NCBI GenBank assembly: GCA_947451925.1
Contig: CANGAW010000015.1
Coordinates: 13,625 to 45,624, forward strand
Direction of reading: 5' to 3'
DNA: 32,000 bases
From: Burkholderiales bacterium
GTDB taxonomy: Bacteria; Pseudomonadota; Gammaproteobacteria; Burkholderiales; Burkholderiaceae_D
The first letter of the stretch is position 1. Each line of letters begins with the position of its first letter. The notes below the pieces were generated by a model, which saw only the letters and a program-made list of their open reading frames with translations, ran no database searches and was not told the origin of the DNA. This document shows positions 14,120 to 24,791 of the stretch, one piece after another. Made by a program: the position numbers and the translations under genes.

Positions 14120-14164
14120 TGGCTCCCCGACCTGGACTCGAACCAGGGACCTGCGGATTAACAG
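14120..14164 (-). repeat. att repeat B: 45-bp copy of the tRNA-Asn 3' half, 45/45 identical to 24716-24760
   Basis: tggctccccgacctggactcgaaccagggacctgcggattaacag. It diverges immediately after ...ttaacag. Confidence 0.9.
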
Positions 14165-14263: not shown

Positions 14264-14869
14264 CTAACTGGACTTGTCTTTCATCGATTTATTAAGTAAC
14301 TGAATTGTATGCTGGAAGTGTTCTGCGGCCGATGTGGTTGCGAGATCCTCAACTGAGAATGCTTTGAGTGAAAATCCATAGGTTTGCCCCTTTTTGCTCC
14401 TGAGTGAAGCGATCTCATATGCTCCTTGAGACGATTTGATTGACTTACGAATCCATATTGGTGCCCCTAGGATTATTTTGCTTCTTACAAAAACGATTCT
14501 GTCCTCTGTCGTATAAAGAATCGTTCCCTCGTTGTTAGGCAATGGATGCAGTTCGTTGCAGAGAAACGGGAACCATCCTTTCCCTTTTTCCGTTAGGATC
14601 CGCTCATCTACACGATTTATATTGTTAGGATCCGTACAAGGGTGTTTAGGCCAAGGAGGGCCCGGGTGATCAAAAAAAACCGTGCCACCATCAGGTGAGC
14701 GATAAAAAAATACATCGGCTTTACAGACGGGGCATTGTGCATTTGGATTGCTGTAGCTTTTTTCTTTGTTCCAATAATCACCGGCATATTTAATGCCTCC
14801 GGGATCATAAAAAACACCACCCCAACCACAATTGCAGTCTGAGGAATGCCCATATCCATTGCAAGTCAT
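14264..14869 (-). CDS. hypothetical protein with Cys/His-rich N-terminal (zinc-ribbon-like) region
   Basis: 201-aa ORF with N-terminus MTCNGYGHSSDCNCGWGG...CPVCKADVFFYRSPDGGTVFFDHPGPPWPKHPC. Same strand as, and 96 bp downstream of, the caspase-like gene. Confidence 0.6.
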   Translation of the reverse strand: MTCNGYGHSSDCNCGWGGVFYDPGGIKYAGDYWNKEKSYSNPNAQCPVCKADVFFYRSPDGGTVFFDHPGPPWPKHPCTDPNNINRVDERILTEKGKGWFPFLCNELHPLPNNEGTILYTTEDRIVFVRSKIILGAPIWIRKSIKSSQGAYEIASLRSKKGQTYGFSLKAFSVEDLATTSAAEHFQHTIQLLNKSMKDKSS

Positions 14870-14965
14870 GCCTATTGTCCTAGTACTATGAATAAGATCT
14901 ACTAAAAAAACTATTCATCGCTATTGGAATAAAAATCATATATTTAAGTGATTTATTGCAATAAA

Positions 14966-15604
14966 TTAGAGTCTGCCTTCTTTGGCTAATCGCCAGTAAT
15001 AACGACCTGCTGCTGTCAATTTACAGCTTTTTGACTGTATTGCTGCATCGTACATATGTTTTGCGTTATTAGGAACAACCAAATGAATCCTGTTGAGTTT
15101 TTGTAGCTTAGAAAATATTTCAATTTTTTCTTTAATGCAAAAATCCGATGTCTCTTCGAATTCTGGTGATAAGTCATAATCTTCCGCAGGCAATGGAAAT
15201 AAGTTAGGTAATTCTCGCAATAGCTTGATGCTAACTGGCGGCTCACATTTTCGTATTGCAATCACCTTTGAAACATGAGCCTTTAAGAGTGGCCTCTGAT
15301 CCCAGGCTCCAAGAGCGGCTTCAACTTTTGCGTATATGGATGGAATTGATATATTGCCAAGGATGTCTGCAGCGCCACCTTCTAGTGAATCAAGTACAAG
15401 AGATGTAAATAAACCACCGCCATCAACTTCGACGGACATCTGATTACCTCGGCTGGCAGTGATAATTGAAATGCCTTCGCGCAGTACGGCCATTTCATTG
15501 TTTAATTCAGGTGCATTACCTAGTAATCCTGAATGACAGCAATCTAGAAGTATTACAATTTCATCTGCTTTTGAGTCGTTGGCCATTTTAAGAACATCTG
15601 CCAT
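14966..15604 (-). CDS. caspase-like (peptidase C14 fold) protein lacking the N-terminal His-bearing half, plus an unknown C-terminal domain
   Basis: The DCCHSG catalytic-Cys motif is at residues 21-26 (15527-15544). It is followed by the typical ...ITASRGNQMSVE...GGGLFTSLVLDSLEGGAAD. An in-frame stop lies 4 codons upstream of the ATG, and GAGG lies 9 nt upstream. No GHG-type His segment occurs in any minus frame upstream. Confidence 0.6.
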   Translation of the reverse strand: MADVLKMANDSKADEIVILLDCCHSGLLGNAPELNNEMAVLREGISIITASRGNQMSVEVDGGGLFTSLVLDSLEGGAADILGNISIPSIYAKVEAALGAWDQRPLLKAHVSKVIAIRKCEPPVSIKLLRELPNLFPLPAEDYDLSPEFEETSDFCIKEKIEIFSKLQKLNRIHLVVPNNAKHMYDAAIQSKSCKLTAAGRYYWRLAKEGRL

Positions 15605-15630
15605 GGTTTGGCTGCCTCAGTCGAGCTCAG

Positions 15631-15918
15631 TTGCTGAAAAACCCATTAGGAAAAATTTTCGAAAAAATGGCAGTGATAGCTGGCGATAAAACTGAGCTTT
15701 GGGCTGTTTCAAAAATACCTGTGCGGCTTGATGGTATGACTCTAGAGCAATTAACCCCTGACGGTTGGATTCCAAGATTGGAATTCAGCATTGATGAAGA
15801 AGATGAGATTTGCTTTGCCGAATATGAGGATGCTGAATTCGAAGACATTATGCTAAACAGCTTTGAAAAGAGAATGGAGCTTTTTAATAATGCAAAGAAT
15901 TTAGCTACAGCTGCTTAA
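15631..15918 (+). CDS. small acidic hypothetical protein (start uncertain: TTG 15631 or ATG 15667)
   Basis: 95-aa ORF with an acidic core (EFSIDEEDEICFAEYEDAEFEDIM). Divergent from the caspase-like gene. Weak RBS. Confidence 0.4.
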   Translation: MLKNPLGKIFEKMAVIAGDKTELWAVSKIPVRLDGMTLEQLTPDGWIPRLEFSIDEEDEICFAEYEDAEFEDIMLNSFEKRMELFNNAKNLATAA

Positions 15919-15945
15919 TGCACTAATTTATTTTTGGAGAAAACA

Positions 15946-16266
15946 ATGAATAAAACCTTCATTAATGTTGCGAATGCGAGAACTACAGTACTCGTGGATT
16001 TTAAGATTGCACCGATAGATAGGCATTTCGAGGAATCGCTAACCCAGCATCTATCGGCTACGGTTGATGTTTCTGGAAATCCTGAGCAAGCTGTGAATGT
16101 GATGAATTCTATTACTCATTACAAAGGGGATATCGATGCAATTCAATATCAATTCGGTAGTACCGAATCCGCTGATCAAGAACTCGACTATGTGGCAGAA
16201 AATATTGAGCGAGAATTCTTGTATTGGTTGGTGAAGATGAATGGTTATGATGCAGTACGCCCTTGA
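15946..16266 (+). CDS. small hypothetical protein
   Basis: ATG at 15946 (MNKTFINVANAR...) is preceded by GGAGAAAACA. The track ORF start at 15934 is a TTG. Confidence 0.5.
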   Translation: MNKTFINVANARTTVLVDFKIAPIDRHFEESLTQHLSATVDVSGNPEQAVNVMNSITHYKGDIDAIQYQFGSTESADQELDYVAENIEREFLYWLVKMNGYDAVRP

Positions 16267-17515: not shown

Positions 17516-18047
17516 GTGGACGATCATTCGATGAGTTCGTAGCCACAGCACTTCGGCACAACCTGAATTCAGGTAAGGGCGGTTTCGCGGTCTCCTTTTA
17601 TGTGCAGCTGATGAAACGCAACCATTGTGAAAGCCGAAGTGCCGACTGTCACTGGTTTGCAAGTTGCCGTGTTAAGCAGGGCTTGCTCGTGACGCACAGG
17701 CGTGTGCCTGCCGTCTTTGTGCTGAATGATTGCTCCTTGCGTTAATCGGCCTGCAACAGCCAACAGCATCCCTGTGGGTTAGTAACGCTAAGTCTCTGCT
17801 ACCTCTCAGAATTTCCGTCCCTGCGAACATGTTTGACCAGGTTTAGGGCGCCAGTTAGCTGAGGGCGCTGCTCATTATCGGTAGTGATGTGTGCCGCAGG
17901 CTTTTCCTCTGGCTTGCGGCTACGTTTATTTATGCATCACCAAAGATCTCGTGAATTTTCCCGACATTTTCATAGGCATTTTCCCGGTCGACCTTTGGCA
18001 TAAATGGTAATAAATTAGTAACTCCAATAACCTAAACAGGAGGAGTT

Positions 18048-19848: not shown

Positions 19849-20481
19849 CTATTTTGTAATAGTAAAATTTTTATTTGATATTTTTGCTTTGATTATTACT
19901 ATTTTTGGGTCGATTGTTTTAGCTAAATCTTGAATCTTTTGAGTTGGTATTTCACAGCGGCAACCAAGAATTATCTCTACAGGTCGAATTTCATCGGAAA
20001 ATTCTTGAAAATAATTTCCATTCTCTTTCGTTGATATATCTAATTCGCAAAAAACTCTCCACTCATCCTCATATTTCCAGTTCTTAAATTTTCGTCTAAT
20101 TATTTGATCGAGTGTTTGTTGATTAGGCTTTGCAATTCCTGTAATTTTATCTTTTGGTATGCTAATTAGGTCATCTGAATACTTTACTTTGCAAGGAAGA
20201 TGATTAGTTATCTCAAAACCTAAACAAATTCCTAGATGCTTGTCGCCGTAATGCCCCCATAAGACAGGATTAGACCATCCTGAAGAAAAACAGATTAAGC
20301 CTTTCGTCTCATCGATTTGGTTTTTGAAATTTACTAATGCAGTATGGTCTCTAGGATCAGTTCTATTAACTGCCAGTAATTCGAAAGGATCGTTGAGCTC
20401 GGAAAATCGAGAAATTTTCAATCTTCTCAAAGACAAGTTGGAAATTGCAAAGTGAGCTGACGTGAAATAATAAAGTTTCAT
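19849..20481 (-). CDS. DUF2971-family protein
   Basis: N-terminal MKLYYFTSAHFAISNLSLRRLKISRFSELNDPFE, then ...ICFSSGWSNPVLWGHYGDKHLGICLGF, match my recollection of DUF2971 conserved blocks. The ATG lies 1 nt after the upstream stop (TAAgATG). Confidence 0.65.
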   Translation of the reverse strand: MKLYYFTSAHFAISNLSLRRLKISRFSELNDPFELLAVNRTDPRDHTALVNFKNQIDETKGLICFSSGWSNPVLWGHYGDKHLGICLGFEITNHLPCKVKYSDDLISIPKDKITGIAKPNQQTLDQIIRRKFKNWKYEDEWRVFCELDISTKENGNYFQEFSDEIRPVEIILGCRCEIPTQKIQDLAKTIDPKIVIIKAKISNKNFTITK

Positions 20482-22457: not shown

Positions 22458-24329
22458 TCAATCTGGATAATTTGTAATTCGCTTGCAAATGTTATTCATT
22501 AAGCTGGTTATTTTTTCTGACGTATACGAATCAAGATGATCAATTTTTAATTCGTTAGAATTAACTTTTTGCATAAACTTAAGCGCCTGTATAGCTTTGG
22601 ATGCACCGTGTGATTTTGCCCAAGCTGAGTTGGCATTGTTTCCGCTTATTAAGAGAGATTCATCTTCAAGAATAAATTTTTTATAATCTCTATTGGAAAA
22701 TACATCTTCAATTCCGTGGCATTCATTTATCTTGTACATTCTTTGCGAAGCCCAATCGTGATCATCGGCAAACATGTCCCGTTTTATTGAGTTAAATACT
22801 TTGCGCGCACTTGGTTCATCGTCGAGAATAATTATGAATTGCAGCCCCCATCCTAAAAATAGATTCGCGAAATTTTGTACATTAGACGTACCAGTAGCTG
22901 GAAGGTAATTTATTTCAACTGTTTGATTGGTTAATTTATGAAATGCAGTTAAAAAATAAAAACAGCTTAATTCCTCAAGGATGACATTATTTGTACTTTT
23001 AATTGTCGTTTGTCTAGAAAAAGAGGCTCCCATACTTGCGAGAATTGGACTTAGAGTATCTGAAGAGGCCGCGCCCAAGGCATGGGCGCCAATAACCTTT
23101 GTAGGATTTCCTTCTTCTTTTTCATCTCTTTCGACTGCTAATATTCTTTGAAAATGTGTTTCACTAATTAAATTTGGGCTATGAGTAGAATAAATTACGC
23201 CTATTTCATTTTTTATACTTTCAAGAAGCTTCAAGACATCTCTCTGAGCTTTTTCATGCAAATTTGCTCCAGGTTCATCAAGCAAAAATATAAGATTTTT
23301 TTTCTGAATTTGCGAAGAGAAAAGCTGAAGAAAGAAAGAAATAAACCACCGAGTTCCTCTACTTCGTTGTTGCGGATACAGTGGATCGGAACTGTCTGAA
23401 ATCAGAAATTGCAGATATGGCTTCCCTGTTTTTTCATTGCCGGTAGGGTAGTGATGGATAGAGCATTGAATCTCAAGCTTACTATTTGTGCCTATTGTCT
23501 GGCTCCAGAATTTCCGGAATTCTTCAGTTAATTTTTTATTCGCAGATTTAAGAGTCGCCTCTCTAGCTCTCGGATCACTTTTTACTAGATCACTCAAATC
23601 TATTTTTGAAATAACAAGAAAATTCTCGGCAGCATTTTTTCCATCGGAGATGGCAAGCTGATTTTCGTCAGTTATGTCAACAGAGTTGGGTAGTAATCCA
23701 AATTTTTCTTCAAAGAGGACAAAGGTGGGGGCGAGTTTAAACAACTTGTCGCGGATTTTGTCCGATATTTCTTCTACGTTCTGATTTATAGCTTCTGGTG
23801 TTGAGTTGGTTAATTCAGGTGATGGTGATGTATGTTCTTGGCTATCAGCTGAAATTTCTGATATTTCTTTGCTGTTAGCGTTTTTTTGGGCTAATTCAAT
23901 ATTTTCCCTAATTTTTACTATACTTTCAGCTATATTGATATTTTCTATCTCCCAATGAGAGTCATAAATTTTGGGATCTGTTGAATTTTTGTGAAAGCTA
24001 AAATGCCAATTTAATTTATAGTTAATATTTTTAAATTGCTCCAGTAACTGGTTTTTAGTATGACTATCTTCAATCTGTGTTAAAGCCGAACTTAATTCGA
24101 TTTCAGTTAATTCGGTTGTAATGAAGATTTCTGGTAAAGGGTGCCCATGTCTAAGATCGTTATCTGCGATTGATTGGTTTGAGAAAGTTTTTGCCAGTGC
24201 TTCCAAAATTGCAGTTTTGCCGGATTCATTTTGACCAACGATAGCTGTAATGCCGTCCATTGAAAAATAAATTGCTCCTGTGTCAAGGATCGAGCGAAAA
24301 TTTTTTATTTGGAAGCTCAGTGGTCTCAT
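22458..24329 (-). CDS. OLD-family ATP-dependent nuclease-like protein (ABC-type ATPase N-domain + Toprim-like C-domain), class-1 (stand-alone) layout
   Basis: Walker A GQNESGKT. A long helical insertion precedes the signature/Walker B region (RGTRWFISFFL...LIFLLDEPGANLHEKAQ...YSTHSP). C-terminal Toprim-like blocks NVILEELSCFYFL, LPATGTSN and FIIILDDEP. ATG 24329 with a GGAG RBS is preferred over the TTG at 24365. Confidence 0.7.
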   Translation of the reverse strand: MRPLSFQIKNFRSILDTGAIYFSMDGITAIVGQNESGKTAILEALAKTFSNQSIADNDLRHGHPLPEIFITTELTEIELSSALTQIEDSHTKNQLLEQFKNINYKLNWHFSFHKNSTDPKIYDSHWEIENINIAESIVKIRENIELAQKNANSKEISEISADSQEHTSPSPELTNSTPEAINQNVEEISDKIRDKLFKLAPTFVLFEEKFGLLPNSVDITDENQLAISDGKNAAENFLVISKIDLSDLVKSDPRAREATLKSANKKLTEEFRKFWSQTIGTNSKLEIQCSIHHYPTGNEKTGKPYLQFLISDSSDPLYPQQRSRGTRWFISFFLQLFSSQIQKKNLIFLLDEPGANLHEKAQRDVLKLLESIKNEIGVIYSTHSPNLISETHFQRILAVERDEKEEGNPTKVIGAHALGAASSDTLSPILASMGASFSRQTTIKSTNNVILEELSCFYFLTAFHKLTNQTVEINYLPATGTSNVQNFANLFLGWGLQFIIILDDEPSARKVFNSIKRDMFADDHDWASQRMYKINECHGIEDVFSNRDYKKFILEDESLLISGNNANSAWAKSHGASKAIQALKFMQKVNSNELKIDHLDSYTSEKITSLMNNICKRITNYPD

Positions 24330-24398
24330 ATGCTCCACATCCTTTTTTATGTAGACCTTAAGCAATTTACTTAGGGTTGGATTGTTTCATTTAAATAT

Positions 24399-24715: not shown

Positions 24716-24791
24716 TGGCTCCCCGACCTGGACTCGAACCAGGGACCTGCGGATTAACAGTCCGTCGCTCTACCAACTGAGCTATCAGGGA
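24716..24791 (-). tRNA. tRNA-Asn (anticodon GUU), 76 nt with encoded CCA
   Basis: Sense strand: TCCCTGATAGCTCAGTTGGTAGAGCGACGGACTGTTAATCCGCAGGTCCCTGGTTCGAGTCCAGGTCGGGGAGCCA. Cloverleaf folded by hand: 7-bp acceptor stem (with U5-G68), anticodon loop CUGUUAA, T-arm CCTGG/TTCGAGT/CCAGG. Very similar to E. coli tRNA-Asn. Confidence 0.95.

Follow-up and report, generated by a model that had tools for sequence, protein, structure and literature searches.

A 5'-truncated caspase-like gene in a tRNA-Asn island, probably left over from a type IV Thoeris operon

INTRODUCTION

Can an open reading frame that carries only the cysteine-bearing half of a caspase-like domain be a protease gene in its own right? 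We asked this of a 212-aa ORF in a 32,000-nucleotide stretch of DNA from a Burkholderiales bacterium (the whole stretch is referred to as the window). An original prediction, made from the letters of the DNA, had left two readings open: the ORF could be the decayed remnant of a protease-based system, or it could be a genuine half-caspase that works with a partner, the 201-aa Cys-rich protein encoded next to it. Its statements about the sequence of positions 14264-15604 were all confirmed. The 212-aa ORF starts about 20 residues ahead of the motif DCCHSG (its N-terminus reads MADVLKMANDSKADEIVILLDCCHSG, in which D21 opens the motif), an in-frame stop lies four codons 5' of the ATG (GAC TGA GGC AGC CAA ACC ATG), and the 201-aa ORF follows on the same strand, 96 bp downstream. 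The features of the locus are collected in Table 1.

Table 1. Features of the locus, by position in the window
Feature	Position (nt)	Strand	Remarks
Distal att repeat	14120..14164	-	perfect 45-nt copy of the tRNA-Asn 3' end; 100% identical to 24716-24760
201-aa gene	14264..14869	-	two Cys/His clusters; pattern conserved in 170 relatives
5'-truncated caspase-like effector gene	14966..15604	-	212 aa, corresponding to family residues 108-319
Truncation junction	15602..15616	-	homology ends at or just 5' of the ATG (Met108); in-frame TGA 4 codons upstream
Pair of small, divergently oriented ORFs (95/83 aa; 110/106 aa)	15631..16266	+	gene calls
Tyrosine recombinase, 188 aa	16303..16869	-	catalytic domain only, intact; PF00589, 3e-27
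Island integrase, 463 aa	20997..22388	-	phrog_1 integrase, 5e-26; weak PF00589
tRNA-Asn(GTT)	24716..24791	-	integration site

RESULTS

The 212-aa ORF aligns with the last two thirds of a caspase-like protein

When 5.8 billion proteins were searched with the 212-aa sequence, 3042 relatives were obtained, most of them by far 319 aa long with PF00656. Among the best 120 of these, 96 are exactly 319 aa long and carry Peptidase_C14 (PF00656), and the 319-aa proteins in this set stem from many phyla. The 212-aa protein shares 65-76% identity with the 319-aa proteins at a query coverage of 100%. When full-length homologs were used as tblastn queries, their residues 108-319 mapped to 15604..14969, and in the alignment the first Met of the 212-aa ORF coincides with an invariant internal methionine of the family, Met108. 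Unlike its full-length relatives, the fragment alone did not match the PF00656 model, and no Pfam family was found in it at E <= 0.1. PADLOC assigned it to 'caspase' with an E-value of 4e-4, and the NCBIfam caspase domain aligned with it over profile positions 110-208 only (E 1.5e-11), with a score of 44 bits that is below the 140-bit cut-off of that model.

The full-length relatives are similar to metacaspases by sequence (E 5e-6), with His84 (in FSGHG) aligned to the metacaspase catalytic His and DCCHSG aligned to the catalytic Cys motif. The fold of an AF2 model of a full-length homolog (pLDDT 76) matched MALT1 and TbMCA2 (E 1e-7). In this model, three predicted strands (2-9, 41-48 and 76-81) and two helices (24-32 and 59-71) precede residue 108; together with the alignment, this means that the missing residues 1-107 comprise strands 1-3, helices 1-2 and the catalytic His84. 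The 212-aa ORF retains helix 3 (108-116), strands 4-5 (122-127 and 152-156), DCCHSG and the complete C-terminal domain (~110 aa, about residues 220-319), with all invariant columns kept. Thus, the likeness to peptidase C14 (metacaspases and the paracaspase MALT1) consists of the DCCHSG motif and of the sequence and predicted fold of the full-length relatives, whereas the fragment in the window keeps only the Cys-bearing half of the domain. What is missing at the N-terminus is thus not just the His but also half of the fold, and these comparisons argue against a working half-caspase.

The full-length relatives are coupled to a TIR gene, as in type IV Thoeris

In type IV Thoeris, a short ThsB-type TIR protein senses the infecting phage and responds by making N7-cADPR. 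This molecule turns on a caspase-like protease with specificity for arginine, which breaks down EF-Tu along with many further cell proteins and so aborts the infection (Rousset et al., bioRxiv 10.1101/2024.10.24.620036). At L001, the homolog locus inspected first, 6 nt separate the end of a 129-aa ThsB_TIR gene from the caspase gene. The same arrangement, a ThsB-type TIR ORF of ~129 aa directly 5' of the caspase gene, was present in 106 of 108 full-length loci. These comprise 36 full-length loci from species-representative genomes and L001, of which 34 have the TIR gene just upstream at a gap of 1-28 nt, and 72 metagenome loci (80 were fetched, and 72 were full-length with room upstream) that all have it, with no exceptions. 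The two TIR-less exceptions among the 36 genome loci are the two most divergent copies, both from Bacteroidota. A homolog on an E. coli IncI plasmid is annotated in the same way, with a 'TIR domain-containing protein' followed 9 nt later by a 'caspase family protein'; complete E. coli genomes contained no DNA match to the region. The survey therefore shows a tight coupling of the 319-aa caspase to the ~129-aa TIR gene.

The catalytic mutants published for the system of Pseudomonas sp. 1-7 are PsTIR E79Q and PsCaspase C129A (bioRxiv 10.1101/2024.10.24.620036). Both positions coincide with those of the present family, E79 with E79 of the 129-aa TIR protein and C129 with the cysteine of DCCHSG, so that the likeness to PsCaspase is one of architecture and residue numbering (E79, C129) and not of alignment. 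Taken with the 65-77% identity to the TIR-caspase family, this supports the view that the 212-aa ORF would be an effector gene of type IV Thoeris (TIR plus caspase-like) of which the 3' two-thirds are left. The ORF also includes the C-terminal domain, in which the ligand binding and the dimer contacts of the caspase have been placed as a published hypothesis (bioRxiv 10.1101/2024.10.24.620036), and which would thus be the proposed N7-cADPR sensor.

The copy in the window differs from type IV Thoeris in two respects. It lacks residues 1-107, with the catalytic His and three core strands, so that instead of a complete His-Cys dyad only the Cys motif is there; and it lacks the adjacent TIR gene (ThsB/TIR_2), in place of which the opposite strand carries a pair of small, unrelated ORFs, hence there is no working system. 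With the His absent, half of the sheet gone and no activating TIR gene in the window, the 212-aa ORF alone cannot be a protease.

The missing 5' part is absent from the window and homology ends at the ATG

We compared the DNA around the start codon with the six closest homolog loci. Identity was 68-75% over the 60 nt after the ATG and 22-31%, i.e. the random level, over the 90 nt before it. This drop places the joint at 15605 +/- a few bases, which is where the original prediction had put the cut. No TIR gene was detected in the 32-kb window by tblastn with the L001 TIR protein (best E 1.6), and a profile HMM of caspase residues 1-107 found nothing in the six frames of the whole window (best E 0.42). 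Both tblastn and the profile HMM thus bore out the statement of the original prediction that the His half is not encoded in any frame upstream. A displaced or inverted N-terminal half within the window was also considered and rejected: tblastn gave weak, frame-inconsistent similarity at 17523-17650 (E about 2), and the HMM gave nothing. Two faint in-frame likenesses 5' of the ATG, GAC-TGA-GG versus GAC-GAG-GG and QAAQVFLKQPKA versus QAVEQLFKDKAD, were ascribed to chance, given the random level of DNA identity in this segment.

The place where the 5' part of the caspase gene and the TIR gene would be is taken by the two small divergent ORFs, for which no family or plasmid match was found; the 110-aa ORF was likewise without a plasmid match. 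The 83-aa product of the ORF next to the joint (15631-15918, plus strand) had no homolog but itself among 5.8 billion proteins, and this ORF may not be a real gene. The recombinase gene beyond them aligns with only the C-terminal half of Xer proteins and could be taken for a truncated gene. We rejected this, as many of its relatives are 185-200 aa long and align with it end to end, forming a large, naturally short family. An 18-nt inverted repeat (15215-15232/16775-16792, 17 of 18 positions complementary) has its arms in the caspase fragment and in the recombinase gene, and ~0.05 such pairs would be expected by chance in the island. Neither this pair nor a 17-nt one (16253/17215) was accepted as a recombinase site, since they lie in coding regions or are expected by chance, and an inversion between the repeats would restore nothing of the caspase gene.

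Because the source of the window is a contig assembled from a metagenome (ENA ERZ27280179, k141_1923966), the junction could be an assembly chimera and the real gene could be full length. The order recombinase, small ORFs, 212-aa ORF and 201-aa gene was found on five contigs from different assemblies, one of which (L048) was assembled independently by Logan from a sequencing run; this makes a misassembly unlikely. In addition, the island around the junction is coherent, with perfect 45-nt att repeats at its two ends. We therefore regard a chimera as extremely improbable.

Other short copies break elsewhere and do not form a family

The original prediction had noted that a truncation would be called into question if the 212-aa form were itself widely conserved with this exact start. 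It is not. Among the best 120 of the 3042 matches, five entries are 212 aa long and one of these is the window itself. Two entries (P0097 and P0067) start 5-21 nt from contig ends and are gene-caller artefacts that pick the conserved Met108. The remaining entries are P0068 and P0060, of which the latter is located mid-contig and has room for no more than 64 codons on its 5' side. Moreover, the window protein is closer to the full-length proteins (76%) than to the other 212-aa entries (<= 68%). Judged by these comparisons, there does not appear to be a conserved 212-aa 'half-caspase' family.

Broken copies of other kinds were recurrent. Three mid-contig metagenome loci lack both the TIR gene and the N-terminus of the caspase, with breakpoints that differ from that of the window: at residue 76 in L124 and at residue 92 in L130 and L132, which have the same sequence, fused behind a Bug/TctC-like gene fragment. 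In these remnants the His of the Cys motif has been lost (DCCYSG in L124, DCCFSG in L130/L132). Three genome loci (L044-L046) are shorter 3' remnants of the caspase gene, L019 has a truncated TIR gene, and L037 and L041 have a frameshifted caspase gene. Truncated, frameshifted or TIR-less copies of the operon were thus met repeatedly among the 119 loci examined, and the view that either reading of the 212-aa ORF would be unusual does not hold for a remnant. Recurrent broken copies of type IV Thoeris represent the typical turnover of defence genes on mobile islands.

The 201-aa neighbour appears to be a separate cargo gene

We next asked whether the 201-aa protein could be the partner of a half-caspase. 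The Cys-rich spacing seen in it by the original prediction is real: C3, H8, C12 and C14, and C46, C49, H76 and C78 are conserved, with C3, C12, C46, C49, H76 and C78 invariant in the family and H8 and C14 nearly so. The corresponding motifs are CNxxxHxxxCxCGWGG and CPxC...GPPWPKHPCT, and the pattern suggests that the protein may bind zinc. The protein has 170 detectable relatives, the C-termini of which are variable, some with Sel1 or cold-shock domains. Searches of Pfam, NCBIfam, PHROGs, PADLOC and PDB sequences gave nothing significant. The AF2 model (pLDDT 80) has a beta-rich C-terminal domain, and Foldseek against PDB and BFVD found no significant match to its fold.

A two-gene system, in which the Cys-only half-caspase is joined by a 201-aa protein that supplies the missing function or the sensing, would fit the position of the two genes, which are intact and 96 bp apart on one strand in the cargo end, and the presence of a candidate defence gene (PDC-S31) on the same island. 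The pairing is nevertheless unique to the locus in the window. The original prediction had suggested asking whether homologs keep the zinc-ribbon-like neighbour, and none of the 46 loci screened for it does: tblastn found no relative of the 201-aa protein near the caspase homologs in any of them, and the genes downstream of the caspase homologs are diverse. Conversely, none of four contexts of 201-aa relatives contains a caspase gene. The closest relative (78% identical, L004) follows a DUF8426/NucS_C gene, two others adjoin type I RM and CBASS genes (L049 and L053), and one stands alone between housekeeping genes (L050). The DNA similarity between the window and L004 starts exactly at the ATG of the 201-aa gene (14870) and continues beyond the stop codon as far as the att repeat, indicating that the 201-aa gene is a module of its own; the caspase part, for its side, is a clean subset of the 319-aa protein. 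Thus, the two-gene reading is largely refuted and we consider it highly unlikely. From these gene contexts and alignments, the 201-aa gene would be a separate, unrelated cargo gene that is adjacent by chance, and not a partner of the caspase. Its uncharacterised family, with RM and CBASS genes as neighbours, could be a candidate for defence screens, possibly as a single-gene system.

The 212-aa ORF is most probably a recent truncation remnant

With no 212-aa family, no linkage to the neighbour and half of the fold missing, the idea of a genuine half-caspase with a partner was not sustained. The other reading, a remnant of a protease-based system, was supported, in the form of a 5'-truncated type IV Thoeris effector gene. 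We think it very probable that the 212-aa ORF is a relic without function, derived from a type IV Thoeris operon, and that its 201-aa neighbour is unrelated. A deletion or replacement in the cargo end of the tRNA-Asn island would have taken away the TIR gene together with codons 1-107 of the protease gene, and the called ORF would then begin at Met108 as the first start codon after the joint.

The state of the fragment bears on when this may have happened. At 97 columns that are >= 95% conserved, the 212-aa ORF has three changes, all of them conservative; intact genes have a mean of 1.1 changes (sd 1.1) at these columns, and 14 of 119 have three or more. This absence of decay implies that the truncation was probably recent. 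An intact close ancestor (>77% identity) of the ORF was not found in the databases. The intact, undecayed 212 codons also count against a remnant, as the remnants in L124 and L130/L132 did decay. So does the position of the joint, which coincides with Met108 within about two codons, with a GAGG 10 nt ahead of it; if the breakpoint fell at random within the 107 codons, such a coincidence would have a chance of roughly 1 in 20.

The same features could be read as signs that the fragment has been retained and is expressed as a decoy, which would soak up N7-cADPR or form dead heterodimers with a full-length caspase. Besides the intact ORF, its undecayed conserved sites and its start at a conserved Met behind a GAGG, this reading can draw on the complete C-terminal domain (about residues 220-319) as the hypothesised site of ligand binding and dimer contacts, on the presence of the allele on several contigs, and on a precedent in phages, which use small sponges against N7-cADPR: TadIV-1 neutralises type IV Thoeris by binding this molecule (Nat Commun 2026, PMC13243611). 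TadIV-1 is relevant to the decoy reading only. It would be alike as a small protein that counters the N7-cADPR signal, a property that is hypothetical for the fragment, and it has no sequence or structural relation to it. If true, the decoy would be a cell- or island-encoded brake on type IV Thoeris that is derived from the effector itself and damps the toxicity or the immunity of the system, benefiting the island or the host.

Several observations speak against expression and retention of such a decoy. No sigma-70-like promoter was predicted on the minus strand 5' of the 212-aa ORF, where the divergent intergenic space is only 26-62 bp. The GAGG that the original prediction had taken for a ribosome-binding site is present 10 nt 5' of the ATG, but as evidence for translation it is weak, because this spacing is among the longest normally seen and because the homologs have GAC GAG GG almost at this position, where it is part of their normal coding sequence (Asp-Glu-Gly). 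Furthermore, there is no conserved short-form family and the other truncations break elsewhere and decay, the dangling half of the caspase sheet would probably lead to misfolding, the window has no intact type IV Thoeris for a decoy to act on, and ligand binding by the C-terminal domain is itself a hypothesis. We therefore consider the decoy unlikely, at a low probability, and return to the truncation remnant as the preferred reading.

The appropriate annotation is thus a 5'-truncated type IV Thoeris caspase effector (pseudogene/remnant), with no new protease or two-gene system. The original prediction had itself named a simple 5' truncation without a conserved partner as the outcome that would remove the novelty, and this is what comparison with the full-length homologs revealed. 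The system behind the remnant is already known, and the 212-aa ORF is an ordinary gene remnant.

The remnant lies at the cargo end of a tRNA-Asn island

The island measures 10.6 kb and is bounded by perfect 45-nt repeats, with a GC content of 36-45% inside as compared to 52-57% outside. On the side of the distal att site, the gene series of the island finishes with the 212-aa remnant and the 201-aa gene. This end is the cargo end, where gain and loss of genes are expected. The locus thereby resembles gene remnants in other tRNA-integrated genomic or defence islands in its distal position in the cargo, low GC content, integrase and att repeat, in the presence of mosaic island pieces such as a duplicated 5' end of the integrase gene, and in the truncated and frameshifted copies of the TIR-caspase operon in other genomes. 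It differs from them in that the ORF in the window is unusually clean and intact and starts exactly at the conserved Met108.

Some further features of the island and its surroundings were observed. A 125-nt direct repeat (22277-22401/24473-24597, 85% identity) represents a copy of the integrase 5' end beside tRNA-Asn. It brackets a gene for a 635-aa AAA_15/AAA_21 ATPase (22458-24365, GC 36%) and looks like a second insertion or the scar of a tandem island. A gene for a 210-aa DUF2971 protein (19849-20481, minus strand) seems to share an operon with the integrase gene and a 165-aa ORF; its product was matched to PDC-S31, one of the candidate defence families of PADLOC (E 8e-28). Rfam gave a strong, full-length match to the Polynucleobacter-1 RNA motif (RF01718) at 17738-17873 on the minus strand, with 84 bits versus a gathering score of 37; this part of the island, between the gene for the short recombinase and a DUF6641 gene, is poor in ORFs over 1.2 kb. 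Just outside the distal att repeat, the segment 11345-13566 encodes a VapC(PIN)/MazE-like toxin-antitoxin pair and a Fic/SoFic-like adenylyltransferase; this patch of uneven GC content may be an older island.
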